In this document: positions 1 through 59,057 of the stretch, piece by piece
Layout: the number at the start of each line of letters is the position of its first letter
Numbering within the stretch: position 1 is the stretch's first letter
Virus record (IMG/VR): IMGVR_UViG_3300005688_000042
Length of the DNA: 64,000 nt
DNA from: a virus
Taxonomy: Duplodnaviria > Heunggongvirae > Uroviricota > Caudoviricetes
Direction: 5' to 3' (one strand)
Translations under genes and position numbers: made by a program
The notes under the pieces: generated by a model
What the model saw: the letters and a program-made list of their open reading frames with translations, nothing else
What the model was told of the DNA's origin: nothing
Database searches by the model: none

Positions 1-1079
1 TGAAGCCGATGGTGTCACTGTAGGTGTTACAGATGGTGTCACTGTAGGTGTCACTGTAGGTGTTACAGATGGTGTCACTGTAGGTGTCACTGTAGCTGAA
101 ATATTGGTAGATGTGGGAGTAACGCTTGGTGACATTTGAAAATCAAACATTGTTTTTATAGGATCGCTAATATCAACAAAAATTGTGAATTCGTCTATTA
201 TGAATCCTACTCTTTGTATGATATACCTAGATGGTGATTCGCTTATATTCGCTTGTTCTCCTAGATATAAAGGAGAACCCGGTGAACCCGAAAACCCCCA
301 GCCTAAAACGTCATATAGATAACCATATTTGACATAATTTACAACATCACCGGAAGCATGCCCGTTTTGGTTGATTCCGGTGCACGCTAGTCCATTTTTT
401 GCCAATTTACAATATTTGTAATTCTTTGTATCAATTGACACACAATGATGTTTTGGAATAGCCTCTAAACATTTAGTGATGTTCAGATGTTGATCTATTT
501 TTCCAATATACCCATTTTCAACTGTCAGTTCACTTTCGGTGGTTAGAAACTCATTGCTATTGTCTTTTTTAATTGGATGTCTATTTTCATCAAATAGGAT
601 TAAACCGGAATTGTTTTTGGTTGCTAAGTTAAAATTAGATCCAATGTCGTAACACTTTAAAATAGCTCCTTTTCTATATTCACCAACAAATACTCTTATT
701 ACTTCTTTCCACGAATTCACCCCAGCACGTTTAATGTACATTTTTCTAGATTTGAATTCGAAGAAATTCTGATCTATTTCTGCATGGATAGGAAGTTTTC
801 CTCCAGCTTTAGGAGGTAGTGGTGTAGAGCCATATGTTATCTTTGCTGTATTAATATTAATATCTACATATAAATATGCGTCTTTATTTTTGTTGAATGG
901 ACCCTTCCATGCACTCTTTATTATGTCAGGGTGTATAGTTAGATAATTTGATGATCCGTGAGAGAAAGATAGTATTAAAGGTGCTGTCGCACTATTAAGT
1001 GATATGCTAGTTCCATTCTTGATTAGGAAAGGAGTTACGGGTTGCCTTTGGACTATACCATTTGAAAAATTTAATAACA
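1..1079 (-). CDS. hypothetical protein, N-terminus at 1079, continues past window start; C-terminal part is a Thr/Pro/Val-rich tandem repeat
   Basis: Hand translation of the reverse strand is continuous from ATG(1079-1077) to base 1 with no stop (MLLNFSNGIVQ...SATVTPTVTPSVTPTVTP); not in the ORF track, probably because it is truncated at the edge. Confidence 0.5.
9..108. repeat. tandem 12/24-nt repeat (ggtgtcactgta ggtgttacagat) x ~4, encodes the TPTV/TPSV repeats of the CDS above
   Basis: Direct repetition visible in the first two sequence lines. Confidence 0.7.
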
Positions 1080-16863: not shown

Positions 16864-16936
16864 GGGTATGCACTTTCGATGGACGATGGAATGAATACGA
16901 ATCATTCGGCTGTGGGTTCGACTCCTATCATGCCCG
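16864..16936 (+). tRNA. tRNA-Arg (anticodon ACG)
   Basis: Acceptor GGGTATG/CATGCCC, anticodon stem AATGA/TCATT with loop atACGaa; D-arm weak. Confidence 0.5.
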
Positions 16937-17088
16937 CAAAAAATTAAGAAATAGATTTAAGATGACTCAGATCGTATGTGACCTACGGTGGAATTCCCGG
17001 TTGGATGATCTATCGAACACTCATGTTAAATCTAGGGCAGTAAATGATTTAAGTACACGATTATTTACTGTCCATTAACAAAATATGT

Positions 17089-17162
17089 AGCGGTATAGCA
17101 TAATGGTAATGCATCTGACTTTGACTCAGACTATGGTGGTCCGATTCCATCTACCGCTGCCA
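17089..17162 (+). tRNA. tRNA-Gln (anticodon UUG), CCA encoded
   Basis: Acceptor AGCGGTA/TACCGCT, D-stem GCAT/ATGC, anticodon stem TCTGA/TCAGA with loop cuUUGac. Confidence 0.6.
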
Positions 17163-17880
17163 AATTATTAGATTTTTGAAATGATTTTTCTAAAATTTCT
17201 GGCATATATTTCTTCATCCATCTATTGATTTTCTGAGGTTTCTTACCAAGTAATGTGGCTAATTTTGTCACCCATCCATATTTTGTAAAATCAATATCAC
17301 AGTTTTTAATTATTTCCATATCATCTTTTATTTTTGTTGTTAGTTCTCCCGTCCTATAATTGTATATTTCTTTTCGGATTATTTCGGGTTTTATCTTTTT
17401 AGGTCTTTCTGGTTTTATCTTAACTGATCTCTTTTTGACATTTGCTCCGCAGAAGTTACTAGTCTGTGCGTGACAATTCCTACATAATAATCTTATATTT
17501 TCTAGTCGATGGTCTGTTGGATCTCCATTTATATGATCTAAATCCAATGGTATTGGTTTATCGTTCCATTCAGTTAATGAACATATAGAGCATTGATGAG
17601 AGAATATATTCTCTTTAATTAATCGCACTCTTAGTTTAGATGTTGTGTATGATGGATATTTCCCATCCAATATATCTTTTAGATTTATTTTAATGTTATT
17701 TTTCCCTATTTTATTATTTGTAAACTTATCTATATTTAAATCATATAACTTTATATAATAATTTAATGACTTATAAGAGTAATTGCTAGTAGTGTGTAAA
17801 CCTAGAAAATTAAAACACTCGGCTTTTGATGTACTGGCATTGATCGCCTCTTGTAAATCTTCTTTTGATATATAATTCAT
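17131..17880 (-). CDS. HNH homing endonuclease
   Basis: HNH motif DLDHINGDPTDHRLENIRLLCRNCH; late promoter and RBS upstream; last 32 nt overlap the tRNA-Gln 3' end on the opposite strand. Confidence 0.7.
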   Translation of the reverse strand: MNYISKEDLQEAINASTSKAECFNFLGLHTTSNYSYKSLNYYIKLYDLNIDKFTNNKIGKNNIKINLKDILDGKYPSYTTSKLRVRLIKENIFSHQCSICSLTEWNDKPIPLDLDHINGDPTDHRLENIRLLCRNCHAQTSNFCGANVKKRSVKIKPERPKKIKPEIIRKEIYNYRTGELTTKIKDDMEIIKNCDIDFTKYGWVTKLATLLGKKPQKINRWMKKYMPEILEKSFQKSNNLAAVDGIGPP

Positions 17881-18086: not shown

Positions 18087-18163
18087 GCGGGTGTGGTATA
18101 GTGGCTGTGCCCTGCGCTTCCAACGCAGAGTTTAGGTGGGTTCGATTCCCATCGCCCGCTCCA
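18087..18163 (+). tRNA. tRNA-Gly (anticodon UCC), CCA encoded
   Basis: Acceptor GCGGGTG/CGCCCGC, anticodon stem CTGCG/CGCAG with loop cuUCCaa, T-loop TTCGATT; followed by a T6 run. Confidence 0.7.
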
Positions 18164-18866
18164 ATTTTTTATATTTTCTCAAATCTAAATCTATCCCCAA
18201 CCGCTTACATCTTTTCTTAATTGCCGTGTCACTGACACCAAACTTCTCACCCAAAGACACCATTGAATGGTTTATGATCAATTCTGTCAATTCCTCTTTA
18301 GTGACGTTAAACTTTCTCATATTTTGAGTCCTGATGGCCTTTTTCTCTGCTGATTCATAGCTCTTCCGCTTGTCATTCTTCGGACGTTTGGAATTTCGAC
18401 CAGAAAATGTAGTAGTTTGGCTGTGACAGTTAGGACAAAGAAAACATAAATTTTCTAATCTATTGTCATCATTAATCCCATTAATGTGCTCTAATTGCAA
18501 GATTAATGGTTTGCCATTATGACTTCCATTATTATCACATTCAGAACATTTGTAAGCTAATAGATTATTTTCTGTTAGTATCTTTTTAATTGTTTTTCTA
18601 CTCGTCTTAGAACCAGTAACAAAAACATTGTGTATATTATGAGTACAATCTATGCGTGCTTTTCTATATTCTTTATAGTTTAATTTCATTTGTTCGGTAT
18701 TAATTGACTCCACACTGATCCTCCGTGTCAGTGTCCTATGGTTCCCGTTGTAACCATTAAATCCTAACTTCTCTAAAACTTCTACGATAGAACTACTTGT
18801 GTCTATCATGTTTTGTAAATCTTCTCTAGGTATTAACCATATTACTGACGTTCTTGGTTTTGGCAT
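18132..18866 (-). CDS. HNH homing endonuclease (start trimmed to MPKPRTS)
   Basis: LEHINGINDDNRLENLCFLCPNCH; late promoter plus AAGGAG RBS upstream of the ATG at 18866; C-terminus overlaps the tRNA-Gly 3' end. Confidence 0.65.
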   Translation of the reverse strand: MPKPRTSVIWLIPREDLQNMIDTSSSIVEVLEKLGFNGYNGNHRTLTRRISVESINTEQMKLNYKEYRKARIDCTHNIHNVFVTGSKTSRKTIKKILTENNLLAYKCSECDNNGSHNGKPLILQLEHINGINDDNRLENLCFLCPNCHSQTTTFSGRNSKRPKNDKRKSYESAEKKAIRTQNMRKFNVTKEELTELIINHSMVSLGEKFGVSDTAIKKRCKRLGIDLDLRKYKKLERAMGIEPT

Positions 18867-18885
18867 TCGAACTCTCCTTTTTAAG

Positions 18886-18893
18886 TATTTATA
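18886..18893 (-). promoter_or_regulatory. T4-type late promoter for the HNH gene
   Basis: Minus strand reads cgTATAAATActtaaaaaggagagttcgaATG. Confidence 0.55.
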
Positions 18894-18962
18894 CGAGTTC
18901 GTTGACATTATTCCTTTTTTGTGCGAACATGCCTTTACAACCTCCATAACCAAAAACCCACC

Positions 18963-19364
18963 ATGCGCATAATTATAGAAATCCCTGACGATCAAGTCCC
19001 CCCATCATATCGTTCTGATCTTTATCCTTCTGGTTATGCCGAGGATAATTTACATGATTTGATAATAAGTGATTCAATTTTACGCAAGCTTGAGATGAAG
19101 ATGGATTTGATCATAGCCAAAGATATTGGCGAAGAATTGAAGCAGGCTCTTAAAGAAACATACGAGGCTGACATAGCATTGCTAAAACTTTTACAACAAA
19201 ATATGAAGATAGAGTCAGAATCTGGCGTTTCAAAAGAAAAAATTCTAATTGATGGTTTGACAGATGTGGTTAAGGATTGGTATGATGGTTGCCCTAAGTC
19301 GATGAACTTTGTCACAAGAACTCTTAAACTACTTAAAACATATATGGGAAATCCAAAATGTTAA
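18963..19364 (+). CDS. hypothetical protein (start trimmed to MRIIIEIPDD)
   Basis: ORF track 18921..19364. Confidence 0.4.
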   Translation: MRIIIEIPDDQVPPSYRSDLYPSGYAEDNLHDLIISDSILRKLEMKMDLIIAKDIGEELKQALKETYEADIALLKLLQQNMKIESESGVSKEKILIDGLTDVVKDWYDGCPKSMNFVTRTLKLLKTYMGNPKC

Positions 19365-20177: not shown

Positions 20178-20810
20178 ATGAAATGTAAAAAATGTGAAGT
20201 AGATTTTATACCATCCAAGGGGTTAATAAATTATTGTTCTCTAGCATGTAGAAATACTAGGGTCTTTACTGATGAAGCCAAAATTAAAAAAGCAGACCAG
20301 AACAAGATATTTTGGAGAAATTTATCAGATTTGGAAAGGGTAGAGAGAATATCAAAAATACATACACCAACTAGAATTAAGAAAATAAAAGAAACTCTCG
20401 AAAAGAAAATTAATGAAAAACCATTTGACTCTGTATGTTTTGATGTAAAGCGGGTTAGGGTCATAAAAGAACAAGAAAATAAATGTAATTCTTGTGGTAT
20501 TTTTGAGTGGATGGGATCTCCAATCTCATTAGAGATTGACCATATTGACGGAAATAATAAGAATAATTCTAGAGATAATCTAGAGGGATTATGTCCTAAT
20601 TGTCATTCATTAACTCCGACATGGCGAGGAAGAAACACAAGAAAGGCGAAAATAAGTGATAACGAACTTATTAATAGCATAGTAAACGCTGGCAGTATAC
20701 GCCATGGTTTGTTAAATTTAAACATGTCACCAAAGGGTGACAATTATGGTAGAGCAAAAAGACTACTAGAAAATAGTGGATTAGAAATAACCAGAGGGAT
20801 AGATTCATGA
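20178..20810 (+). CDS. HNH homing endonuclease
   Basis: EIDHIDGNNKNNSRDNLEGLCPNCH; N-terminal Cys cluster. Confidence 0.7.
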   Translation: MKCKKCEVDFIPSKGLINYCSLACRNTRVFTDEAKIKKADQNKIFWRNLSDLERVERISKIHTPTRIKKIKETLEKKINEKPFDSVCFDVKRVRVIKEQENKCNSCGIFEWMGSPISLEIDHIDGNNKNNSRDNLEGLCPNCHSLTPTWRGRNTRKAKISDNELINSIVNAGSIRHGLLNLNMSPKGDNYGRAKRLLENSGLEITRGIDS

Positions 20811-21189: not shown

Positions 21190-21756
21190 ATGAGAATAAA
21201 AATATCTGAATATGCAAAAATGAAAGGTGTGAGCCAGCGCACAGTATGGCGCTGGATCAAAAATAACGAACTACAAATAGAACATACACAAACTGGCAGG
21301 GTTCGCATCTTACTTGATGTCAATAAAGAGACAAAAGTCGCTGTTTATGCCCGAGTTTCGAGTACAGAAAACAAAGATAATCTTGATAGACAAAAAGATC
21401 GAGTTGTGTCTTATTGCAATGCCAAAGGATACAAAATAGAGAAGATTGTCACAGAAATTGGTTCTGGTTTAAATGACAACAGACCAAAACTTGAGTCGCT
21501 TTTAATAGATAAAGACATTGACTTGATTGTTGTGGAACACAAAGATCGATTAGCCCGTTTCGGCACCAATTACATCGAGAAATTGCTGGCTGTTTCTGAC
21601 AGAAAGATTGAGGTCATCAATCCGGTTCAGGACGAAAAAGAAGATTTAATGCAAGATTTCGTGTCACTTGTCACATCTTTTACAGCCCGGTTGTATGGAT
21701 TGCGTAGGTCCAAGCGACAGACCGAAAAGCTGATCCAATCCTTGGAAGCTGCATGA
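21190..21756 (+). CDS. tnpA: IS607-type TnpA: MerR-like HTH + serine recombinase (resolvase) domain
   Basis: KMKGVSQRTVWRW HTH; catalytic VYARVSS...RQ. Confidence 0.7.
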   Translation: MRIKISEYAKMKGVSQRTVWRWIKNNELQIEHTQTGRVRILLDVNKETKVAVYARVSSTENKDNLDRQKDRVVSYCNAKGYKIEKIVTEIGSGLNDNRPKLESLLIDKDIDLIVVEHKDRLARFGTNYIEKLLAVSDRKIEVINPVQDEKEDLMQDFVSLVTSFTARLYGLRRSKRQTEKLIQSLEAA

Positions 21757-22982
21757 AAGCTAGACGTGTAGAAAAGCATGCCATATGTCGCACAAGTCAT
21801 TATTTTAGTGACTTGTGTGATCTGACTCACAAGTCCAAAAACTTGTATAATGCATCTTTGTATGCCATTCGTCAGCATTTTTTCTCCACAAAAACATACA
21901 TCGGCTATTCAAAATTAGCTGGTGATTTCGCAAAAACTAATATAGATTACCAGCAATTACCTAGAAAAGTGTCACAACAGACCTTAAAATTGGTTGATCA
22001 AAATTTTAGATCATTCTTTGCTTTGTTGAAAGCAAAGAAAAATGACAAGGTACGTATACCAAATTACCTAGACAAATCAGGTAAATATGTGACAATTTTC
22101 ACTAATCAGGCATTATCTTTCGTTAAACCTGGATATGTAAAATTATCTGGTTATGACATCTTTATAAAGACAGAAAAAACAGATATACAACAGGTTAGAG
22201 TTGTTCCGAGAAGCAATCATTTTGATATAGAAGTGATATATTTGACAGATATAGAAGACAAAAGAAGTGACAATAGTCGTTATTTGTCCGTTGATATCGG
22301 TTTAAGTAATTTAGTAGCAACAGCGTCAAATGTCATGAAACCATTTTTAATAAATGGAAAACCATTGAAAGCTATAAACCAATATTATAATAAAAGAAAA
22401 GCAGAACTACAATCAAAATTAGGAGACAAAAGAAAGACAAGTAATAGAATCAACGCCATTTCTAGAAAAAGAAATGACAAAATTCGTGATTATTTACATA
22501 AAGCAAGTACGTGGCTTATTAATCAATTAGATTTCAACCAAATAAACACCTTAATAATCGGTGAAAATAAAGGTTGGAAACAAGAGATAAACATCGGAAA
22601 GAAAAATAATCAAAATTTTGTGTCAGTGCCATTCAATAAATTGAAACAAATGTTGACATATAAAGCCGAATCAAGAGGAATTAATGTCATTTGTCAGGAA
22701 GAGAGCTATACATCAAAGGCATCATGTTTGAGTAATGATATGATTCCGACATATGGAGAGAAGACGGATGACATGAAATTTTCTGGATATAGAAAAACCA
22801 GAGGAATTTATAAAGACAAATGTCTTGATTTAGAAATAAATGCAGATGTCAATGGCGCATATAATATTATGAGAAAAGCAGTCGGAGATGTAAAAATTGA
22901 TCCGATAGAGGCATGTAGTTGGCCCTTGTCAGTGAAAATTTCACTTGACACAAAACCTAAGTTATGTCATTATTGGCATTGA
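21753..22982 (+). CDS. tnpB: TnpB (OrfB) RuvC-like protein; C-terminal zinc finger degenerate
   Basis: RuvC-I VDIGLSN, RuvC-II IIGENKGW, RuvC-III NADVNGAYNI; both CxxC pairs lost (CLSND, CLDLE). Confidence 0.65.
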   Translation: MKARRVEKHAICRTSHYFSDLCDLTHKSKNLYNASLYAIRQHFFSTKTYIGYSKLAGDFAKTNIDYQQLPRKVSQQTLKLVDQNFRSFFALLKAKKNDKVRIPNYLDKSGKYVTIFTNQALSFVKPGYVKLSGYDIFIKTEKTDIQQVRVVPRSNHFDIEVIYLTDIEDKRSDNSRYLSVDIGLSNLVATASNVMKPFLINGKPLKAINQYYNKRKAELQSKLGDKRKTSNRINAISRKRNDKIRDYLHKASTWLINQLDFNQINTLIIGENKGWKQEINIGKKNNQNFVSVPFNKLKQMLTYKAESRGINVICQEESYTSKASCLSNDMIPTYGEKTDDMKFSGYRKTRGIYKDKCLDLEINADVNGAYNIMRKAVGDVKIDPIEACSWPLSVKISLDTKPKLCHYWH

Positions 22983-25615: not shown

Positions 25616-26161
25616 ATGAATAATTACTTCAAGATCCATAAGCTTACAGACGACAGAAAAGAAATGTTAAAGTCGTTCGGAACGTTGTCGCATATTAATG
25701 CGGAGTTTGTTAAAAACGTGAATAAATATGACGAATATGTTGATCCGAAATCAGTTGTAGATTTTATCGCACAGATGAAACTTGAAGGTAAGTATTGCGT
25801 CTTCTTAGCATCAAAAGAAAGGGGTGTAGAGCGCTTTCTTTCGTGGGAAGAGATCGAACAGAAGTTAATCAGTAAGCGTGATTCTATCTTAGAAGAAGGG
25901 AGAATCAAATTGGACAAGATTCTGCTTGATCTCAATCAGCAGATAATGAACCTTGATGAAAATTATGTACATGCCAATAAGACAACGCTGTCTTGGAAGC
26001 TAGTTAATGAGGCTCGAATGGAAGCGGAGTTCTTACAGGTTCATAAGAAGCTTGTACAGCATCGAAAAGAATATGTGAATGGCGACTTCCACCTTCATGT
26101 GGATGATTTCCATAATAATCGTGTATATCACTATGTTTCAGCGGATGATTTTGTGCTATGA
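25616..26161 (+). CDS. hypothetical protein
   Basis: ORF track; GAGAGAAA RBS region. Confidence 0.5.
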   Translation: MNNYFKIHKLTDDRKEMLKSFGTLSHINAEFVKNVNKYDEYVDPKSVVDFIAQMKLEGKYCVFLASKERGVERFLSWEEIEQKLISKRDSILEEGRIKLDKILLDLNQQIMNLDENYVHANKTTLSWKLVNEARMEAEFLQVHKKLVQHRKEYVNGDFHLHVDDFHNNRVYHYVSADDFVL

Positions 26162-27114
26162 AATTAATTTTAAATGATAAACTGACTAAATCTGAGAATA
26201 TACGAGAATATCCGTTAGGAGATATTATTCGGTCAAATATGACTAAGGTATTGAAACCTGATGAAAAATATCAATTCTTTTATGAATTTCCCCAGACCAA
26301 ATTGCGTAACGCGGGACTCTTGGGATTTTTGAGTCACGCTTATTCGAATCATGTGAATGTATCTATCTCACCATATGATATTTGGATTCTGATTATTAGT
26401 GAAGTGTCCAAATTTATTGTAGATAAGCCGGAACCATTTAGGGAACTGTTTACCGATTCCACTGAAAAGAAAGAAATTCTAGTTCCAACGAATAGCGAAT
26501 ATGAGATGCCGATGGATTTATTATCAGAGGCTTTATCGAAGAGCATTAATTTTGATGCGTCTATCCTCTTTCCAGAATTATCAATTGAGAGCGAAGAATC
26601 TGTTGGAATGATTCAGGCTTTATTTTGTGAAATGGCGTCACCGTATTATTCGTACTCAATGTTTATGTGTGGTCTGCCAGAGATAAAAGTGCTAGGCACC
26701 GTAGACGATTGGAAAAATATTCGCACGAACTTTGATAAGCTTTTTGAATTGCTTGGCAAGTGCTATAATTTTAAGAACTATCCAGTAAGAGTTAAAATAA
26801 TTCTAGACAATATAGTTAACTCATTTGAAGCCAGTGAGGCGGATAGAATTTCCTTTTGGAAGGATATTTTTACACAAAAGAACGTTGGTTCTGGTAGTCA
26901 ATTAGAAGTAGATGGTTGGATTACTCATTTTCTAATTGTGCAGAAAAAGCCACTAAAACTTGAGAATTTTACTAATACTATCGGTTATGTTAGATATAAG
27001 AACCTGACATCTGGTAACAATTATATGAGCATCCATGGTGGATTTGACTATGACCTTGACGAGGAAGAGTTTGCATGTTTAAGGTACAGTAAGTACATAT
27101 CGATAAAGTGTTGA
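26158..27114 (+). CDS. hypothetical protein (318 aa)
   Basis: ORF track. Confidence 0.5.
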   Translation: MKLILNDKLTKSENIREYPLGDIIRSNMTKVLKPDEKYQFFYEFPQTKLRNAGLLGFLSHAYSNHVNVSISPYDIWILIISEVSKFIVDKPEPFRELFTDSTEKKEILVPTNSEYEMPMDLLSEALSKSINFDASILFPELSIESEESVGMIQALFCEMASPYYSYSMFMCGLPEIKVLGTVDDWKNIRTNFDKLFELLGKCYNFKNYPVRVKIILDNIVNSFEASEADRISFWKDIFTQKNVGSGSQLEVDGWITHFLIVQKKPLKLENFTNTIGYVRYKNLTSGNNYMSIHGGFDYDLDEEEFACLRYSKYISIKC

Positions 27115-27400: not shown

Positions 27401-27479
27401 GCGGGGTTATCTTCTAACTGGCGAAGAAAATTCACTGTCGATGAATGAAATATCGGTTCGAATCCGTTTAACCCCGCCA
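27401..27479 (+). tRNA. tRNA-Asp (anticodon GUC), CCA encoded
   Basis: 7-bp acceptor, anticodon stem ATTCA/TGAAT with loop cuGUCga, T-loop TTCGAAT; D-arm register ambiguous. Confidence 0.5.
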
Positions 27480-27486
27480 TTCTTCT

Positions 27487-28296
27487 TTAAGATTTACAGA
27501 ATCTATTATGATTTCCCGCATACTGCCCGCCACATTTTTGAGAACAAAATTTCTTACGGTCAGAAGTAACTTTAAACTCTGTACCACAATTAGCACATCC
27601 CTTAAATTCAATTACGACATCATCATATAATTCAAAAAATCTGTTTCGGTGTAATCCAGTCTTGTTTTCAACATATTCAAATATCTCTTGTAAATCTTGT
27701 TTATATTTTATGGTCACCAAACCGTTTGTTCCTGATAATTTGTAAGTGTCTATATTTCTAAAATAATTCTTTATTTCTATGATTTTACCATTGACTAAAA
27801 AGTCGGGAAAAAATTTGAAGTGGTCATTGCGATCAGGGTCATAATAGTCGAAATATTTTCCATATCTTTCAATATTATTACCGTGATCTAAGTTGTATAT
27901 TACAAAAGCTAATTCATAAGTAGAATCGCAATATATGCCTTGGTATTTTCCAGACTTACCTCTGGTAGAGCCTAGACGAACGCCTCCCATTTTTACACCA
28001 TCATATAATCCGTTTTTCCAATAATTGATTGTCAATTGTGATCTTGCTTTATGGTAACATTCATCAGAACACGTTTTTCTATATCGCCGATGTTGATATT
28101 GCGCGTTACAGATTATGCATGTTATTATTTTAAGTGATCTGCTTAGTTTATGGTTTTCAGACATTTTTCGTTTTGTTTCTTCACTATGTTTTCTTCTACT
28201 GTTATTATATGAAGCGGCACACGATTGATTACAGAATTTACTTCTTGAGTCATTTGTGGTAAACTCTTTACTACAGTATAAACATGTTTTAATCAT
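27487..28296 (-). CDS. putative PD-(D/E)xK-type endonuclease with three Cys4 zinc ribbons (candidate homing endonuclease)
   Basis: CLYCSKEF...CNQSC, CIICNAQ...CSDEC, CANCGTEF...CSQKC; core YCDSTYE...FFPDF...EIK. Confidence 0.4.
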   Translation of the reverse strand: MIKTCLYCSKEFTTNDSRSKFCNQSCAASYNNSRRKHSEETKRKMSENHKLSRSLKIITCIICNAQYQHRRYRKTCSDECYHKARSQLTINYWKNGLYDGVKMGGVRLGSTRGKSGKYQGIYCDSTYELAFVIYNLDHGNNIERYGKYFDYYDPDRNDHFKFFPDFLVNGKIIEIKNYFRNIDTYKLSGTNGLVTIKYKQDLQEIFEYVENKTGLHRNRFFELYDDVVIEFKGCANCGTEFKVTSDRKKFCSQKCGGQYAGNHNRFCKS

Positions 28297-28364: not shown

Positions 28365-28394
28365 GCTGACAACACTAAATAAGTTGTGTATGAT
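28365..28394 (+). promoter_or_regulatory. sigma70-type promoter CTGACA-acACTAAATAagttgtg-TATGAT (tRNA promoter family)
   Basis: Read directly. Confidence 0.5.
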
Positions 28395-28403
28395 ACAAGA
28401 AAT

Positions 28404-28506
28404 GGGGATGTCGTATAACGCGTGAGTAGAATGCATTCACCACATTTGGAATTACGCATGATGTTAAAATTGTGAAATGGTGGTTCGAATCCATCTGTCC
28501 TCGCCA
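28404..28506 (+). tRNA. tRNA-like gene, ~103 nt, canonical 3' half with CCA; 5' half/anticodon unresolved
   Basis: T-arm GGTGG-TTCGAAT-CCATC, 3' acceptor TGTCCTC-G-CCA, possible 5' partner GGGGATG; internal palindrome GAATGCATTC. Confidence 0.3.
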
Positions 28507-28523
28507 AAATTAAATAAAATTAT

Positions 28524-28643
28524 GGAAATAATTGTTGTCTCAGCTAAAGAATTAGAAGAATTAGAAGAATTAGAAGAATTAGAAGAATTAGAAGAAATGG
28601 AAAGAATAGCTAGAGAACGTGAATTAAAAGCGTTTGCATAAAG
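28524..28643 (+). CDS. 39-aa micro-ORF containing (EEL)5
   Basis: Hand translation MEIIVVSAKELEELEELEELEELEEMERIARERELKAFA. Confidence 0.25.
28546..28595. repeat. 9-nt tandem repeat (agaattaga)x5
   Basis: Read directly. Confidence 0.7.
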
Positions 28644-28702
28644 ATGCCATTTACAGGTTTTGCAAAAAATGCTACTGTAGAATGGAATAAATAAAGTAAT
28701 AT

Positions 28703-28801
28703 AGATCGGTGGTGCAATGGCAGCATACCAGTCTCCTAAATGTTTTTGTAAAAGAATATTTAGGAAAACTGATGATCGGGGTTCAAGTCCCTGCCGGTCT
28801 G
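28703..28801 (+). tRNA. over-long tRNA-like gene (~98 nt) with a 7-bp internal hairpin CCTAAAT/ATTTAGG
   Basis: Acceptor AGATCGG/CCGGTCT, D-stem GTGC/GCAT, T-arm CGGGG-TTCAAGT-CCCTG; anticodon not assignable. Confidence 0.3.
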
Positions 28802-28817
28802 CAAAATAATATTATAT

Positions 28818-28942
28818 GGATCATTGGTATGTCTGGGTATTACGGCTGCCTGTGGGTGTAAGAGTTTTAGGCTCTGATCAGTTCAAATCTGAAATCACCA
28901 AAAGTAAGCAGCATTAGGTTGGTTCGATTCCAACATGGTCCT
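28818..28942 (+). tRNA. composite tRNA-like structure (~125 nt) with two T-arm-like hairpins
   Basis: Outer acceptor GGATCAT/ATGGTCC, T-arm GTTGG-TTCGATT-CCAAC; second T-arm-like TCAG-TTCAAAT-CTGA. Confidence 0.25.
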
Positions 28943-28959
28943 CAATTTTAAGGAATATC

Positions 28960-35615: not shown

Positions 35616-35774
35616 ATGATGATAAAATTAGTAGATTTCGCAAAGACGCAAGGTGTATGTTACAGAACAGCTTACAATTGGTTCCACCTTGGCTACATCG
35701 AAGGTGCATACCAAACGGCATCACGCACTATATTGGTGCCGAAAGACGCCAAAGTTAAGAGAAAAAGCGAATAA
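35616..35774 (+). CDS. truncated IS607 TnpA: MerR-like HTH only (52 aa)
   Basis: Hand translation MMIKLVDFAKTQGVCYRTAYNWFHLGYIEG... parallels the TnpA N-termini of copies 1 and 3; no resolvase domain; AAAGGA RBS. Confidence 0.45.
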   Translation: MMIKLVDFAKTQGVCYRTAYNWFHLGYIEGAYQTASRTILVPKDAKVKRKSE

Positions 35775-35781
35775 AATCGCC

Positions 35782-36891
35782 GTGAATCTTGCCCACAAAA
35801 TTCAGTTAAAACCCAACAAAGAACAGAAGCAGATGCTGGCGCGAGCCGCAGGCTGCGCCAGATTCACTTACAATTGGGCTTTGGCCGAATGGAATAAGCA
35901 ATATATGGCAGGCGAGAAACCGTCAGCATTAAAATTGAAAAAGCAATTCAATTCCATTAAAAAGCAGGAATTTCCATGGATATACGATTCACCAAAAGAT
36001 GCAAATCAACAACCATTTACAAATTTACAAAGTGCTTTCAAAGGTTTCTTCGACAAACGAACCGCGTATCCGCAGTTTAAGAAAAAGTACAAACGCGATT
36101 CATTTTATGTCTCAAACGATCAATTTCACATAACTGATAATATGATTAAACTTCCACTAATTGGAAAAATTAAATTGGAAGAGACATTGAGATTTGAAGG
36201 TAAGATCATGTCTGCTGTGGTCAGTCGAAAAGCTGATAAATGGTTTATATCAATTGCGGTAGAGATGAATGATTATGGTAAAGCTAGAACATCAGATAAC
36301 ACCATAGCAATTGATTTTGGCATCAAAACTTTCGCGGTTGATCAAAATGGCGCATCTTTCGATGCACCAAAACCATTGAAAAACAAGCTTCAAAAGCTGA
36401 AAAGGTATCAGAGAATTTGTTCAAAGAGAAAAGATGGAAGTCAAAACAAAAAGAAACAAAGATGTAAAGTAGCAAAAATACATAAAGAAATCAGTGACTT
36501 ACGTCACGATTTCACACACAAATTTACAACTCAAATCTGTCGCGAAAACCAAACGATAATTATAGAAGATTTGAATTTGAAAAGCTGGAGCAAAATGTTT
36601 GGGAAGTCAGGAATTGATGGTGGCGTGGGCGAAGCCCGACGCCAACTCAAATACAAGTCATTGATTTATAACAACAATTTAGTTGTAATAGATAAATGGG
36701 CACCGACTTCCAAATCATGTTCTAGTTGTGGTAGCTATAAATCAGACTTGAAATTGAGTGATCGAATCTTCTGCTGTACGGATTGTGGTCATAAAATGGA
36801 CAGAGATTGGAATGCTGCCAAAAATATTTATGTCTCAGGAATGAGACAACTAGGGATGGCTTGTCCCGAAGTTACGCCTTTGGACATCTGA
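35782..36891 (+). CDS. tnpB: TnpB (OrfB), apparently intact; probable GTG start
   Basis: RuvC-I IDFGIKT, RuvC-II IIIEDLN, zinc finger CSSCGS...CTDCGH, RuvC-III DRDWNAAKNI; no in-frame ATG after the HTH ORF stop. Confidence 0.6.
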   Translation: MNLAHKIQLKPNKEQKQMLARAAGCARFTYNWALAEWNKQYMAGEKPSALKLKKQFNSIKKQEFPWIYDSPKDANQQPFTNLQSAFKGFFDKRTAYPQFKKKYKRDSFYVSNDQFHITDNMIKLPLIGKIKLEETLRFEGKIMSAVVSRKADKWFISIAVEMNDYGKARTSDNTIAIDFGIKTFAVDQNGASFDAPKPLKNKLQKLKRYQRICSKRKDGSQNKKKQRCKVAKIHKEISDLRHDFTHKFTTQICRENQTIIIEDLNLKSWSKMFGKSGIDGGVGEARRQLKYKSLIYNNNLVVIDKWAPTSKSCSSCGSYKSDLKLSDRIFCCTDCGHKMDRDWNAAKNIYVSGMRQLGMACPEVTPLDI

Positions 36892-38654: not shown

Positions 38655-38729
38655 GCCCATTTAGCTCAGAGAAAGAGCAGCGATAGCGTATAGCGGCGAG
38701 CGCGGGTTCAAGTCCCGTAGTGGGCTCCA
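38655..38729 (+). tRNA. tRNA-like gene with CCA, D-arm GCTC/GAGC, anticodon arm non-canonical (probable pseudo-tRNA)
   Basis: Acceptor GCCCATT/AGTGGGC, T-arm GCGGG-TTCAAGT-CCCGT; homologue of 40931..41002. Confidence 0.35.
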
Positions 38730-52156: not shown

Positions 52157-52735
52157 ATGAAACTTCGACAATGGGCAAATAAACAAGGGATTTCCTACTT
52201 GACAGCGCTTCGCTGGTTCAAGGCAGGTAAAATTCCAAATTCAACTCAATTCCCATCTGGCACCATCATAATACAAGATGAGCTGCCTGTCAACACGGAT
52301 GAAAATAAATCAGTACATATCTATGCCAGAGTTTCTTCACATGAGAAGAAAGATGATCTAACCAGACAAGCCCAAAGATGTGTTGAATTTGCTAATGCCA
52401 ATGGATACGAAATAATCTCAGTTACAAAAGAAATTGCTTCTGGCATGAATGATAAGCGACCAAAATTAATTAAATTGATTGAACAGAAACCAAAACATAT
52501 CATTGTTGAGCACAAGGACAGATTGACCAGATTTGGATTCAATTACTTTGATTTATTACTTCCTATGATTGGTTGTAAATTAACTGTTATGAATAGAGAT
52601 CAAGAAGAGCATGCGGATTTAATGAAAGATTTAGTTTCTGTTATTACATCATTTTGTTGTAAATTATATGGTCTGCGCAGAGCGCAGAACAAGAAACAAA
52701 AGATCCAACAAATATTGGAAGACGAAAATGTTTAA
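52157..52735 (+). CDS. tnpA: IS607-type TnpA serine recombinase with MerR-like HTH
   Basis: NKQGISYLTALRWF HTH; IYARVSS...RQ. Confidence 0.7.
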   Translation: MKLRQWANKQGISYLTALRWFKAGKIPNSTQFPSGTIIIQDELPVNTDENKSVHIYARVSSHEKKDDLTRQAQRCVEFANANGYEIISVTKEIASGMNDKRPKLIKLIEQKPKHIIVEHKDRLTRFGFNYFDLLLPMIGCKLTVMNRDQEEHADLMKDLVSVITSFCCKLYGLRRAQNKKQKIQQILEDENV

Positions 52736-53783
52736 AAGAGCTATTAAGTTGAAATCATATGCAACAGAAGCAAAGCAAAATAAAGTCCTTGCTTTGATTA
52801 GTCGCTATAGATGTCAAGTTAATATGTTTATAGATTACATCTGGAACAACAAAGAAACAGCAAAATTAGATGCTAAAACATTGAAATCTATAGATAAAGT
52901 TCAAGATTTATCCGAAAGATATAAATCCAATGCATTGAAACAGGCACTTCAAATTTGTAAAAGCGAAAAGAACAAATCCAAACCAGATTTCAATGGTTAT
53001 CCGGTGCTAGATGCAAAGTTCGTGTCTATTGACACGAACAAATCTTCAAAAGAATTTGATTTGTGGATAAAATTATCAACATTGAAATCTGGAAGACGAA
53101 TAGAAATACCAACAAAGAAGCATGCACATTTAAACAAATGGCTTAAAACTGGTACATTGATACAAGGCTGTGAGCTTCGCCCAGACGGTTTCATCGTCTG
53201 GGTAGAGGCGAACCCACCTGAAAAGAAAAATAGCTTGAAGGTCGGTGTAGACATCGGAATGAACAAGCTATTGACCACTAGCTATGGTGAAAAATTAGGA
53301 ACTGATTTTAATCGAATCAATGATAAAATTCTAAGGAAGAAAAAGAACAGTAAGAATTACAAAAGAGCCATAGCAGAAAAGAAAAACTATATAAATCAAT
53401 CAGTTAACTTGCTTCCGTGGACAGAAATGGAAGTGCTTTGCTATGAAAACATTAAAAATTTGAAGAAAGGAAGTACAAAAAGAAATAAACAAACAAGACA
53501 AAAACAGCAACATTGGAGCTATAGACAAGTTATAGAAGCTATGAAAATGAAGGCCCAAGCTAACCGTGTTAGCTTGGTCTATGTTAATCCGGCTTACACT
53601 TCTCAGAAATGTTCCGCTTGTGGTAATATTGCTGCATCCAGTCGATATCTAGAAAATTATTGTTGCATCAGTTGCGGTCATACACAAGACGCAGATGTAA
53701 ATGCAGCAAAAAATATTCTACACAAAGGACTAGACTGGATAACGAGCTTAGAGTCCGTTAAGTCAAAAAGTGCTATCATATGA
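52728..53783 (+). CDS. tnpB: TnpB (OrfB), intact RuvC motifs and zinc finger (start trimmed to MFKRAIKL, ATGTTTAA overlap)
   Basis: VDIGMNK, YENIKNL, YTSQKCSACG...CISCGH, DADVNAAKNI. Confidence 0.7.
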   Translation: MFKRAIKLKSYATEAKQNKVLALISRYRCQVNMFIDYIWNNKETAKLDAKTLKSIDKVQDLSERYKSNALKQALQICKSEKNKSKPDFNGYPVLDAKFVSIDTNKSSKEFDLWIKLSTLKSGRRIEIPTKKHAHLNKWLKTGTLIQGCELRPDGFIVWVEANPPEKKNSLKVGVDIGMNKLLTTSYGEKLGTDFNRINDKILRKKKNSKNYKRAIAEKKNYINQSVNLLPWTEMEVLCYENIKNLKKGSTKRNKQTRQKQQHWSYRQVIEAMKMKAQANRVSLVYVNPAYTSQKCSACGNIAASSRYLENYCCISCGHTQDADVNAAKNILHKGLDWITSLESVKSKSAII

Positions 53784-53864: not shown

Positions 53865-54038
53865 TCTTTCCTACCATCCCCGACCTCCATCCCATTTTAC
53901 CACATATAATATAACTCTGTCTTGTTGTTTTTTCGCAACATTCATAAACCGTTCATGAAGAAAGAAAACGGTTTTGTTCATTTACCGTTCATCGTACTGT
54001 GCTATGATTCATCCATACAAACCAACTGGAGAAAAGAA

Positions 54039-56261
54039 ATGCTTCTGAACGAACGTCGCAGTGAGGGCGCAGTGTCCAACATCCCGCAAGACTTGCGTGG
54101 ACAGTTTACCATTGCCGCTAATGGCAAGGCGTTTGAGATTCTTTCTAGCACACTGTATCAGGATAAGATCGGTTCCATCGTGCGTGAGATTTCTTGTAAC
54201 GCTTATGATGCCCATAAGGAAGCTGGCACTCCTGATCTCCCGTTTGAGATTCATCTGCCGTCTATTATGGAACCGTATTTTTCTGTAAAGGATTATGGTA
54301 TTGGTATGGACACTCACACTGTTGAGAATGTCTTTACTAGCCTATTCGTTTCTACCAAGGAAAACAGTAACGATTCCGTTGGCGCATTCGGTCTTGGTTC
54401 CAAGACTCCATTTGCTTATACTGATACCTTCAACGTGGTGGCAATCAAGGATGGTATGTCGCGTACCTTCACGATGTATAAGCGTGAGGATGGTACTCCT
54501 ATTCACAGTTTGCTTCTGGAAAAGGAAACTACTGAGCCTAATGGTGTTGAGATTATCATGCCGGTTAATAACCTTGGTGATCGTTCGGCATTTGCTAGGG
54601 CTATCTCTCGCCAATTGCATTTCTTTAAGGTTCGCCCGATTATCAAGGGTGGCGATCATTCTGTTGAATGGCAGGATGAACCTACTGATAATGATATTCT
54701 GGTTAAGTATCATAATATTACTATGTTTAAGACTGGCGATTATCGTCGTGGTGTAGTGGCGATTATGGGTCCGGTTGGATATGAATTGAATTTCCAGATT
54801 TTGAAAGAGAAACTTCCCAAGCATGAAAAGGTTATCTCTTGGTTGTCTAATCGTGTTATTCGAATTTACTTTAATATCGGTGATGTTTCCGTAACTCCTT
54901 CGCGTGAGAATCTTTCTTATGATTCTCGCACCATTAAGGCTTTTGATAAGGTTTTCGATGGTCTAATCGAAGAGATTACTGCTACCTTTGAAAAGCAATT
55001 CTCTGGATTCAAGACTCCTTGGGAACGTGCGCAGTTTATCGCAGAATCCAATGATGACGTTGGCAATATCATTGTAATCAAGAACGATAAGGATAATGAT
55101 GGTGTTGTGCGATTCACTGGTCGATATGCCTACTTTGATGTTCAATCGGTTAAAGAGGCTATGGGCGCGAATGCTTGCCATCTCCAGATTATGAGTGTCC
55201 AGCAATTGTCTGGCAATTCTAGGTCTACTTATGCTCAGAATCGCGTGGCTATTAATGAGTTTAATAACAGCCGCAAGTTTATTCTGATTGCGAATGATTG
55301 CAAGTATATGAAGCGTCGGTATATTGCTATCCATAATCAGAATCAGTATTCTACCTGTTGGGTAGTTGTGCCGAGTGATCTGGAAAAGAGTCTGGATATT
55401 CAAAAGGTTTTTGAAGATTCTGGTATTACCACTAAACTGTTGTCCGAGTTTGATCCGGTTGATGTTTCTAGCTCATATTCGTTTGTCAAGGCTCATGGGT
55501 ATATGGTTCCGTTTGAAGAGTTCAAGACTTCTAATCAGGATTTCTGTAAGACTCGTTATAACTGGACCAAGATTGTTGATAAGACTGTAATTGAACCGGC
55601 ATTCTATGTCGTGTCTGATAATGGGGTTATCAATGATTATAAGATTCTGACCAAGTTCAAGGAACTGGTTTCCCTTGGTCTAGTTCCCAATGAATATCAG
55701 ATTCCGATTTACGCTTTCCCCGTTAAGACCGCTGAAAAGATTGCAAAGGATGAAAATTGGATTCTGTTGAATAATTATATTAATGAGCATTTCAATGCTG
55801 ATGCAATTGCTAAACTGTATGCCGATGTATGGGAGAGTGCCGCTTATTTGAATGCTTTCAATTATATCAGGGATAATTCGGATGCGCGTTATCAATTGGT
55901 TCTGAATAATACCAAAGTTAAACAGTGGTTGCTTGATGTTGAATTGACCCTGTTTAGTAAGACTGAAGTTGCATCGCAATATGATTCTGTTATGCTTAAG
56001 CAGATTCTGCAACAGCGTCCGATTGGTAAGTTTAATCATATTGAGGCTACCATTCGGGATTATGTTACTGATAATATCAGGAAGCTGGTGGACCATTATC
56101 CACTGTTGAGGCATATTCGCCACAGTTATTATTTTACTGTTGACGCACAATCAAAGGCTGAATTTGCGGAATATATGGATATGTATGATGCCAAGCATGG
56201 TGCGCCACTTCTTCCGCCTGTAGACTTGGAAGTGCTCGAAAAGTTGTTGACACCGAGCTAA
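54039..56261 (+). CDS. rIIA: rIIA-like protein (GHKL ATPase-like N-domain)
   Basis: KAFEILSSTLY / CNAYDAH / DYGIGMD / GAFGLGSKT match the T4 rIIA N-terminus and Bergerat-fold boxes; start trimmed to MLLNERR with GGAG RBS. Confidence 0.7.
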   Translation: MLLNERRSEGAVSNIPQDLRGQFTIAANGKAFEILSSTLYQDKIGSIVREISCNAYDAHKEAGTPDLPFEIHLPSIMEPYFSVKDYGIGMDTHTVENVFTSLFVSTKENSNDSVGAFGLGSKTPFAYTDTFNVVAIKDGMSRTFTMYKREDGTPIHSLLLEKETTEPNGVEIIMPVNNLGDRSAFARAISRQLHFFKVRPIIKGGDHSVEWQDEPTDNDILVKYHNITMFKTGDYRRGVVAIMGPVGYELNFQILKEKLPKHEKVISWLSNRVIRIYFNIGDVSVTPSRENLSYDSRTIKAFDKVFDGLIEEITATFEKQFSGFKTPWERAQFIAESNDDVGNIIVIKNDKDNDGVVRFTGRYAYFDVQSVKEAMGANACHLQIMSVQQLSGNSRSTYAQNRVAINEFNNSRKFILIANDCKYMKRRYIAIHNQNQYSTCWVVVPSDLEKSLDIQKVFEDSGITTKLLSEFDPVDVSSSYSFVKAHGYMVPFEEFKTSNQDFCKTRYNWTKIVDKTVIEPAFYVVSDNGVINDYKILTKFKELVSLGLVPNEYQIPIYAFPVKTAEKIAKDENWILLNNYINEHFNADAIAKLYADVWESAAYLNAFNYIRDNSDARYQLVLNNTKVKQWLLDVELTLFSKTEVASQYDSVMLKQILQQRPIGKFNHIEATIRDYVTDNIRKLVDHYPLLRHIRHSYYFTVDAQSKAEFAEYMDMYDAKHGAPLLPPVDLEVLEKLLTPS

Positions 56262-58352: not shown

Positions 58353-58425
58353 GCCTCGGTAGCTTAGTGGCCTAAAGCGACTTTCTCTAAAATTGTGATC
58401 GTGAGTTCAAATCTCACCCGAGGCG
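58353..58425 (+). tRNA. tRNA with anticodon CUA (amber-suppressor-like); anticodon stem has two U-U mismatches
   Basis: Acceptor GCCTCGG/CCGAGGC disc G, D GCTT/AAGC, loop cuCUAaa, T-arm GTGAG-TTCAAAT-CTCAC; alternative registers pair worse. Confidence 0.4.
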
Positions 58426-58433
58426 ATATAATC

Positions 58434-59057
58434 ATGTTCCGTTTCCTTGTAAAAGTTCCTAACAAAGTCGGGGTTGCATTTTCCGGTGGAGTCGATTCAT
58501 TGGCTATCGCACATTTCCTGAAAAAGGGAAATAAGGAAGTCACCCTATACCATTTTAACCATCTATGTCAATACTCGGCAGACATTGAGTATAAATGTTG
58601 TCGTCTGGCTGATAGACTCAGAATGCCTATTGTTCTGGCTAGTTATCATGGACAACGTGAGAAGGGACAATCCCTTGAAGACGCATGGCGTAGAGCTAGG
58701 TATCGTTTTCTTAGATCATGTGATCAACAGATTATCACTGGTCATCATATCGATGATGCCGTAGAAACGTGGGTGTGGTCTTCATTACATGGTGAAGGTA
58801 AGTTGATCCCTGTAACTTCTGGTAACATCATCCGTCCGTTTTTGACAACAGAAAAATCAGTTTTCGAAAATCATTGTAAAATCAATAAGTTAGATGTTGT
58901 TGAAGATGAAATGAACAAAGATTTACATCTAATGCGCAATTATATGAGAGCAAATATGATGCAACACATCTATCATATTAATCCGGGATTACGGAAAGTA
59001 ATCAAGAAAAAATACATAAATATGATTAATATTCCAGAATTAGAAGATGACAGTTAA
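58434..59057 (+). CDS. PP-loop ATPase, tRNA(Ile)-lysidine synthetase (TilS)-like; 3' end replaced by the downstream insertion
   Basis: SGGVDS PP-loop; start trimmed to MFRF to clear the tRNA; C-terminal 45 aa duplicated at 60720-60833. Confidence 0.55.
   Translation: MFRFLVKVPNKVGVAFSGGVDSLAIAHFLKKGNKEVTLYHFNHLCQYSADIEYKCCRLADRLRMPIVLASYHGQREKGQSLEDAWRRARYRFLRSCDQQIITGHHIDDAVETWVWSSLHGEGKLIPVTSGNIIRPFLTTEKSVFENHCKINKLDVVEDEMNKDLHLMRNYMRANMMQHIYHINPGLRKVIKKKYINMINIPELEDDS

Follow-up and report, generated by a model that had tools for sequence, protein, structure and literature searches.

Short structured inserts break three tRNA-type genes of an uncultured T4-like jumbo phage

Three consecutive, over-long tRNA-type genes lie within positions 28404-28943 of a 64,000-nucleotide (nt) stretch of the IMG/VR virus record IMGVR_UViG_3300005688_000042, which is referred to here, in its whole length, as the window. 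The source is an uncultured T4-like jumbo phage of at least 306 kilobases (kb); proteins of the window recur on contigs of up to 306,759 base pairs (bp). Comparative sequence analysis indicates that the three loci, designated e1, e2, and e3, are genuine tRNA-type genes, each broken by a short structured insert. Judged from homologs, covarying helices, and model scores, they are far beyond chance. Covariation supports the cloverleaf stems of all three (slid controls reach at most 54% paired), and the covariance-model scores of the elements are 80-112 bits.

An initial annotation, made from the letters of the sequence, had proposed three over-long genes here, with misregistered standard tRNAs as the alternative. 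The genes are indeed present, and misregistration can be discarded: with default settings ARAGORN finds no tRNA in 28404-28942, and with introns allowed it recovers e2 (28703-28802) and e3 (28818-28943) where that annotation had placed them. The Rfam tRNA model finds 28703-28801 with 44.6 bits and a 30-nt insertion in the anticodon loop. At 103 nt (e1), 99-101 nt (e2), and 124-126 nt (e3), none of the genes combines the 72-93 nt length of a canonical type I or type II tRNA with a contiguous 7-nt anticodon loop; e2 and e3 regain both, but only after the insert is removed in silico. The internal structures pointed out earlier are also real. The CCTAAAT/ATTTAGG pairing forms the base of a 14-bp hairpin with a GUAA cap in e2, a second T-arm (TCAG-TTCAAAT-CTGA, 28878-28892) lies within the e3 insert, and the hairpin in the D-loop of e1 has the palindrome GAATGCATTC (28429-28438) in its own loop. 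A perfect CCA end, which had been ascribed to each gene, holds for e1 but not for e2, which ends in GCA, or for e3, which ends in TCA. The suggestion that these are insertion-containing tRNAs is proven for e3 by insertion-free alleles and well supported for e2; it applies to e1 only in a modified form, in which the D-loop is the site of the insert and the anticodon loop departs from the canonical one. All stems are collinear, which rules out the suggestion of permuted tRNAs. The features of the three genes are:

28404-28506, plus strand: e1, tRNA-like gene of 103 nt; acceptor stem 28404-28410/28496-28502, G73 and then CCA
28413-28416/28452-28455: e1 D-stem
28419-28446, plus strand: e1 insert, a hairpin of about 28 nt in the D-loop between A14-A15 and UGG (boundaries approximate)
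28457-28461/28470-28474: e1 anticodon stem, with an 8-nt loop
28479-28495: e1 T-arm
28703-28803, plus strand: e2, interrupted tRNA, most likely tRNA-Trp(CCA); acceptor stem 28703-28709/28794-28800, G73 at 28801
28737-28764, plus strand: e2 insert, a 28-nt hairpin (UAAAUG...UUUAGG) between C35 and A36
28818-28943, plus strand: e3, interrupted tRNA-Asn(GUU); anticodon stem GCUGC/GCAGC, 3' end UCA
28854-28904, plus strand: e3 insert, 51 nt, between U35 and U36 of the anticodon
28855-28858/28896-28899: P1, the 4-bp closing helix of the e3 insert
28861-28875: D-arm-like hairpin of the e3 insert, its loop ending in GG
28878-28892: T-arm-like hairpin of the e3 insert, loop UUCAAAU

The window was compared with contigs of relatives, which carry L-numbers and are largely sister phages from metagenomes. 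These were found through the DUF4419 protein encoded upstream (26158-27114), whose graded homologs are 69-85% identical. All of the DUF4419 contigs L006-L018 have a downstream tRNA cluster that begins with tRNA-Asp and holds homologs of e1, e2, and e3. A search with the e3-insert pattern added L019-L021, and the e2 pattern added the more distant L027 and L028. Homologs of the e1, e2, and e3 types occur in at least 10 independent metagenome contigs. Three contigs from three samples that share an identical 91-amino-acid (aa) neighbor protein are 100% identical over the locus and are thus uninformative for comparison. The halves of e1 and e2, used as exact patterns, gave no match in IMG/VR, and the window has no DNA match, near or distant, among 50,697 GenBank phage records. 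Two other routes to relatives were dropped: a 595-aa neighbor as synteny anchor, which proved to be a widespread fiber-like protein, and the distant DUF4419 homologs on L022 and L023, which are not syntenic.

The position of the e3 insert is given by insertion-free counterparts at L013 8540-8616 and L016 4833-4909. These are 77 nt long, have the loop CUGUUAA, and score 116 and 115, respectively, with ARAGORN. In alignment A1, e3 of the window differs from these alleles by a single block, 28854-28904, flanked by CUGU and UAA. The intact loop is reproduced by this placement alone, and thus the position at 35/36 is unique; by this comparison, the insert is proven to lie exactly at 35/36 of tRNA-Asn(GUU). 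When it is removed in silico, e3 scores 116.8 with ARAGORN, within the range of the intact tRNAs of the window (102-120). A second tRNA-Asn gene, e3b, is polymorphic too, with the insert present in L011, L013, and L016 and absent in L020, and a near-identical insert (about 95%) is found in a third gene, which has a long variable arm (L007, L011, L017, L019, L020, and L021). The e3-type insert occupies these three different tRNA genes each time at CUGU^UAA. Model R2, which represents the e3 module, scores e3 of the window at 92 bits and finds only the 11 known copies among the collected sequences; a covariance-model search of 185,579 reference genomes found no e3 module.

The e3 insert forms a three-way junction composed of a 4-bp closing helix, UA, a 4-bp hairpin, GA, and another 4-bp hairpin. 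Invariant within it are the GG that closes the first hairpin loop and a perfect T-loop, UUCRAAY. In the anticodon arm plus insert, 98.5% of the cells are paired, compared with at most 43% in slid controls, and P1 and the first hairpin covary, both sides having changed between two insert lineages. As modeled, with its acceptor-like stem, D-arm, and T-arm, the insert amounts to a miniature tRNA elbow set within the anticodon. Excision of such a nested mini-tRNA by RNase P and RNase Z was considered and rejected: the predicted cut by RNase Z is in the right place, but that by RNase P would be at 32/33 rather than 35/36.

For e2, an uninterrupted tRNA-Trp is present at the same cluster position, with homologous flanks, in L013 and L006. 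Aligned with these genes, e2 differs by one 28-column gap, between CUCC and AAA, and removal of 28737-28764 gives a 72-nt tRNA with an ARAGORN score of 117.8, again within the range of intact window tRNAs. The e2 fold has a free energy of -38 kcal/mol (z = -4.9 relative to shuffled sequence); 98% of its structure is paired, and the acceptor, anticodon, and T stems covary. Four sequence variants of the insert (28, 28, 28, and 29 nt) share the invariant base CC-UAAAU/AUUUA-GG, in which the 3' GG of the insert pairs with C34-C35 of the anticodon. The distal stem is variable yet paired and contains a conserved U.G pair.

The identity of e2 as tRNA-Trp is favored by three kinds of evidence. First, e2 and intact tRNA-Trp are syntenic and mutually exclusive at the locus. 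Second, the 5' half of the L015 e2 is 88% identical to the L013 tRNA-Trp versus 70% for the best non-Trp gene. Third, 8 of the 9 e2-type genes, with those of the distant L027 and L028 among them, retain A1-U72 and G73, the identity elements of bacterial tRNA-Trp. On these grounds, we consider it quite probable that e2 is a tRNA-Trp with an insert at 35/36; its CCA anticodon is conditional on that site. The sequence by itself would equally allow a tRNA-Arg(CCU) with the insert at 36/37 to 38/39. The whole-body similarity of e2 to tRNA-Trp is not distinctive, and BLAST matches of e2 to annotated tRNA-Trp genes hinge on an anticodon-arm seed. Two other assignments, tRNA-Arg(CCU) with a 37/38 intron (the initial reading) and the ARAGORN call of tRNA-Pro(AGG), were set aside in favor of Trp.

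The structure of e1 was obtained in another way. Alone, e1 folds no better than shuffled sequence (z = +0.6); its cloverleaf depends entirely on the comparison of 12 homologs. In that comparison, 89.8% of the cells are paired, slid controls reach at most 51%, and both sides have changed in 20 of the 27 pairs. The acceptor stem has three G.U pairs. All six pairs of the insert hairpin have changed on both sides; its stem is 6 bp in the relatives and 3 bp in the window, and of GAATGCATTC only TGCA.T, in the hairpin loop, is conserved among e1 relatives. Model R1 scores e1 of the window at 91.7 bits, and the best canonical match of this model is the window tRNA-Gln (46 bits), with the e1 insert appearing as a gap in the alignment. 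An insertion-free e1 allele was not found among the relatives. By these comparisons, e1 is a tRNA-like RNA that resembles tRNA-Gln and has no credible anticodon, and it probably acts as an unspliced tRNA-like RNA. Treating e1 as a simple tRNA with a deletable segment was abandoned, as deletion of all segments followed by ARAGORN gave only marginal, inconsistent tRNA calls.

The pattern of substitution bears on what the inserts do. Compensatory changes in the acceptor, anticodon, and T stems are seen among insert-bearing alleles alone, indicating that the tRNA body is still under selection. The seven nucleotides of the split anticodon loop are invariant even where the insert helices covary, and this invariant set includes the unpaired G34, U35, and U36-A37-A38 of e3. 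Two unrelated inserts, a hairpin and a three-way junction, are found at one 35/36 site, consistent with a single site-specific process. Given their presence and absence among near-identical sister phages and the occurrence of the e3 insert in three genes, the inserts behave like mobile mini-introns.

Together, the ordinary insertion-free alleles, the selected bodies and split loops, and the shared 35/36 site favor removal of the inserts at the RNA level. The mechanism that we favor, with a confidence that falls a little short of even, is removal of the inserts by an endonuclease and sealing of the halves by the phage T4-type RNA ligase 1 (Rnl1). The cluster would be transcribed from a putative promoter just upstream of e1, and the precursor would fold into an ordinary cloverleaf from whose anticodon loop the insert protrudes, the two junctions lying side by side at the insert base. 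An endonuclease would then cleave both junctions, which in e2 would be offset by 2 nt across a continuous helix. The tRNA halves would be held together through the acceptor, D, and T arms, and Rnl1 would close the anticodon-loop nick to yield ordinary tRNA-Trp and tRNA-Asn. The promoter and the ligase gene on which this scheme draws are:

28366-28394, plus strand: putative σ70-type promoter (CTGACA-17 nt-TATGAT), about 9 nt upstream of e1; 10 of 12 matches
60867-61979, plus strand: T4-type RNA ligase 1 gene; Pfam RNA_lig_T4_1 and T4_Rnl1_C; PHROG 562, E = 1e-90

The promoter is the best promoter-like site of the region, is kept upstream of e1 in L007, L016, and L017, and reads TTGACA in sister phages. 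The σ70 type of the promoters indicates that the host is a bacterium.

The geometry of e2 suits such a pathway. The pairs U33-A36, C34-G, and C35-G, followed by U1-A26 of the insert, form a continuous helix. Given this pairing and the insert boundaries, cuts at the junctions would leave 2-nt 3' overhangs on both products. RNase III leaves 2-nt 3' overhangs with 3'-OH and 5'-phosphate ends, and such ends would be directly sealable by an Rnl1-type ligase. T4 Rnl1 seals anticodon-loop nicks, and T4 Pnkp together with Rnl1 is able to replace yeast tRNA ligase in tRNA splicing. In T4 infection, Pnkp and Rnl1 reseal tRNA-Lys after PrrC has cut it in the anticodon loop. The window likewise encodes an Rnl1-family ligase, whose natural substrate is a nicked anticodon loop. 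By this analogy, the window Rnl1 is a candidate sealing enzyme, and its link to e1-e3 is one that we infer. The T4 repair pathway differs in acting on damage at 33/34; participation of Rnl1 in insert removal is our inference. The wider proposition, that phages in bacteria run a protein-based tRNA splicing in which mobile 35/36 mini-introns are removed by a nuclease (RNase III for the hairpins) plus Rnl1, is more doubtful, and we put it forward as an unlikely possibility.

Several observations weigh against excision and ligation. The inserts are conserved at least as well as the exons (100% versus 86-92% for e2 and 92-94% versus 85% for e3b), which suggests that the insert may have a function of its own. 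The anticodon loop of e1 is 7-8 nt, variable, and without a constant U33, and e1 probably does not decode. The encoded CCA of e2 and e3 and the hairpin stem of e1 are degenerate in the window. One C has been lost from each of the CA ends of e2 (28801-28803) and e3 (28941-28943), and the relatives encode GCCA and TCCA. Copies in the type II body, the gene with the long variable arm, always bear the insert, no insert-free gene with this body was found in IMG/VR, and splicing of these copies at 35/36 would yield GUU in a Tyr/Leu/Ser-type body. The stagger left by RNase III does not suit e3, in which the junctions are offset by 4 nt rather than 2 nt and P1 is only 4 bp; e3 would need a body-measuring enzyme or another nuclease. 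No candidate for the excising endonuclease was seen among the 36 window open reading frames (ORFs) scanned. Finally, synteny and identity elements are what place e2 with Trp instead of Arg(CCU), and an insertion-free e2 allele with the same body was looked for and not found.

The main rival explanation holds that the inserts are never removed and that the genes produce stable, tRNA-shaped non-coding RNAs that display the insert as a functional part. The tRNA body would then be used for RNase P processing and stability. Such RNAs could serve as decoys or sponges for host anticodon nucleases or other tRNA-binding factors, or as scaffolded binding modules, for example the e3 mini elbow or, in e1, the TGCAUUAAC loop. 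The high degree of insert conservation, the invariant loop motifs (GG and UUCRAAY in e3, TGCA.T in e1), the lack of a usable anticodon in e1, and the absence of type II-body copies without an insert are all consistent with this idea, as is the presence in the relatives of more tRNA-like genes (the e4 family, described below) with anticodon loops of 9-11 nt. The T4 tRNA cluster also has unexplained stable tRNA-like RNAs, rnaC and rnaD. However, the same genes without the insert are ordinary tRNAs, the unpaired nucleotides of the split anticodon loop are invariant, and a display scaffold does not need an identical 35/36 site for two unrelated inserts. We regard this explanation as possible but rather unlikely.

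The T4 RNAs just mentioned, rnaC (139 nt) and rnaD (119 nt), resemble e1-e3 in being over-long RNAs of little-known function in a tRNA cluster beside a homing endonuclease gene, and rnaC ends in a T-arm and an acceptor-like stem. Neither, however, is known as an interrupted tRNA. Kinship with them was considered and rejected: R1 scores rnaC at 22.2 bits (E = 0.02), like unrelated tRNAs, and rnaD gives no match.

It is improbable that the inserts are selfish DNA insertions, either like miniature inverted-repeat transposable elements or remnants of homing, that have inactivated dispensable tRNA genes and left functionless RNAs. The mosaic of presence and absence in sister phages, the HNH endonuclease and TnpB genes close by, and the degenerate CCA ends and e1 stem of the window would fit such insertions. 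Yet in genes that bear an insert, compensatory substitutions maintain the pairing of every stem (98% and 98.5%), both halves of the anticodon loop are invariant, and the locus is 100% identical in three contigs from three samples. The conserved U.G pair and the exchanges of G.U to A-U are strand-specific, indicating action at the RNA level. Target duplications and IS-type ends are lacking, and no Y1 transposase was seen. IS200/IS605-type miniature elements have subterminal DNA hairpins and a Y1 transposase and insert 3' of one fixed tetranucleotide; the left flanks of the present inserts are CUCC and CUGU, and the genes of this kind that were seen are TnpB and serine-resolvase genes.

Archaeal tRNA introns are short (tens of nucleotides), protein-spliced, and also found at positions other than 37/38. 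In Thermoproteales, near-identical introns occur in different tRNA genes, and transposition among tRNA genes has been proposed. The present inserts share with them their shortness, the non-37/38 position, and the near-identical copies in different tRNA genes. However, archaeal introns need a bulge-helix-bulge motif and the endonuclease EndA; neither was found in the window, and the host is bacterial. An intron of the archaeal or eukaryal kind, cut at such a motif by an EndA/Sen-like endonuclease encoded elsewhere in the phage, is very improbable. Read as tRNA-Arg(CCU), e2 would carry its insert at 37/38, the canonical site, its anticodon-intron helix would be 4 bp long, and its 3' junction would have a bulge of 3 nt (AAA); in e3 G34-U35|G gives a 3-nt unpaired stretch at the 5' junction. 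Nevertheless, the motif is complete in neither: e2 lacks a 5' bulge, and in e3, whose 35/36 site is proven by comparison, the unpaired regions are 2 bp apart instead of 4, with the 3' junction at the bulge margin. In addition, the promoters are those of a bacterial host, and no EndA-like Pfam match was obtained among the 36 window ORFs scanned.

Self-splicing or self-cleaving RNAs, whether degenerate group I introns or small ribozymes, can be dismissed as scarcely credible: the known bacterial tRNA introns are group I and lie in the anticodon loop, both inserts end in G, and the 5' exon of e3 ends in U, but at 28 and 51 nt the inserts are far below any group I core (about 200 nt or more), no Rfam ribozyme or intron family matches them even at E <= 10, and a hammerhead reading of e3 fails because its CUGA...GAAA core is not conserved (GAUA in e3b). 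Group I introns are found in the anticodon loops of bacterial tRNA-Leu(UAA), tRNA-fMet, tRNA-Arg(CCU), and others, including those of Patescibacteria. Like the present inserts, they interrupt the anticodon loop of a bacterial-type tRNA gene and have an optional distribution; unlike them, they are self-splicing ribozymes. According to a 2014 review, all phage introns known at that time were in protein-coding genes, with none in phage tRNA genes.

The closest parallel in the literature is found in Lak megaphages, whose tRNA genes contain highly conserved "enigmatic introns", some with a nested tRNA-like fold, whose presence differs from cohort to cohort (Devoto et al., Nat Microbiol 2019; PMC6784885, Table S6). 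The same work reports a 595-kb phage with anticodon-loop inserts of 23-52 nt and one D-loop insert, which resembles that of e1. In both Lak phages and the present phage, over-long tRNA genes of a phage genome larger than 200 kb carry a non-group-I insert in the anticodon loop; in both, the inserts are strongly conserved and vary in presence among related genomes. Lak inserts, like the e3 insert, also fold like a tRNA, with a T-arm and an acceptor-like stem. They are, however, longer, at 79-141 nt as opposed to the present 28 and 51 nt, and in them a 5' hairpin precedes an almost complete nested tRNA. In the present phage, in contrast to Lak, the site is fixed to 35/36 by insertion-free alleles, a single insert is found in three different tRNA genes, and the phage lineage is T4-like. 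BLAST matches between the two sets of inserts are only 7-10 nt long, and thus the likeness is one of architecture and not of descent. No later work on the mechanism of Lak-type inserts was found in the literature searched.

The remaining features near the three genes are:

27403-27479, plus strand: canonical tRNA-Asp(GUC), which opens the conserved cluster and is syntenic in all sister loci
27487-28296, minus strand: HNH homing-endonuclease gene between tRNA-Asp and e1; PHROG HNH endonuclease, E = 6e-15
28522-28641, plus strand: small ORF of 39 aa between e1 and e2, with a (GAATTAGAA)x4 tandem repeat; a bystander outside the RNAs

The HNH gene encodes 269 aa and is also present in L007 and L016 and absent from L006, L011, and L013. 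The 39-aa ORF, called as a gene in L002 and L004, has no Pfam match, and its repeat encodes ELEELEE... A 50-aa homolog at L015 2339-2491 lacks the repeat expansion and is longer, suggesting that the window copy has been truncated by deletion. The window contains at least 10 canonical tRNA genes scattered across it, several HNH homing endonucleases and TnpB elements, and rIIA (53922-56261); the lineage is T4-like with rIIA and Rnl1 and has a G+C content of 37%. The rIIA protein shares only about 30% identity with its counterpart in Xanthomonas jumbo phages.

Four HNH-type endonuclease genes of the window each adjoin a tRNA gene (Gln, Gly, Lys, and Asp): 17131-17880 (minus), 18132-18995 (minus), 20178-20810 (plus), and 27487-28296 (minus), an arrangement that recalls segB of the T4 tRNA cluster. 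Three TnpB (IS605 OrfB/Cas12f-like) genes are located at 21190-22982, 35653-36891, and 52157-53783, and two of them are preceded by a serine resolvase, the IS607-type arrangement. A tRNA with a CUA anticodon, of the amber-suppressor type (58353-58425), is directly followed, with a nominal overlap, by a PP-loop ATPase gene (58395-59057; ATP_bind_3, TilS/TtcA-like, E = 4e-30). From this juxtaposition, the ATPase may be a dedicated anticodon-modifying enzyme for the adjoining tRNA.

Other irregular tRNA-like genes are found in the window and its relatives. The gene at 16864-16939 is missed by ARAGORN and by the Rfam gathering score and reaches 23.5 bits with the e1 model; its acceptor stem and T-arm are good, its anticodon loop is 9 nt, and its D-arm is odd. 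At 38655-38726 the Rfam tRNA model gives 40.6 bits and ARAGORN nothing, and the anticodon arm looks irregular. The e4 genes, which are absent from the window, form a tRNA-Leu-like family in which a G7.G66 mismatch is conserved, the long variable arm is missing, and the anticodon loop is 9-11 nt. Copies are present at L006 8391-8469, L007 9405-9483, L015 3584-3662, L016 4597-4678, and L017 8138-8205, and in L015 and L017 e4 adjoins a normal tRNA-Leu(CAA). Another tRNA gene, e5, has an anticodon-loop insert of about 73 nt, in which a variable hairpin is followed by a conserved part containing UUCGAAU (L011 8094-8243, L013 8140-8284, and L020, minus strand, about 1040-1180). On a different phage contig, L019 7397-7510 (= L021) is an over-long tRNA-like gene with a CUCCAAA (Trp-type) anticodon loop and extra sequence in the D-region and variable region alike.

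The locus is real, conserved, and unusual, and it adds to the barely characterized short inserts in huge-phage tRNA genes, which had been noted once before, in Lak phages. In the literature searched, only self-splicing group I introns are described for bacterial tRNA genes. Short tRNA introns spliced by proteins are seen as a feature of archaea and eukaryotes. The present locus makes the Lak puzzle tractable, as it offers exact boundaries, two unrelated inserts at one anticodon site, covariation-backed folds, a nested mini elbow, and a candidate ligase in the same genome. Standard predictors miss such interrupted genes or misname them, as with e2, which is most likely Trp but is called Pro(AGG) or Arg(CCU), and thus phage tRNA inventories are incomplete. 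If the inserts are not spliced, the genes would represent a new class of tRNA-scaffolded phage RNAs, possibly anti-defense decoys. If they are spliced, bacteria infected by phages would have a previously undescribed pathway of RNA processing, and the inserts would be mobile elements of a new class; on the wider proposition of splicing through Rnl1, the Rnl1 family would gain a constitutive role beyond the repair of anticodon-nuclease damage, and key tRNAs (Trp and Asn) would be masked from host anticodon nucleases until spliced.

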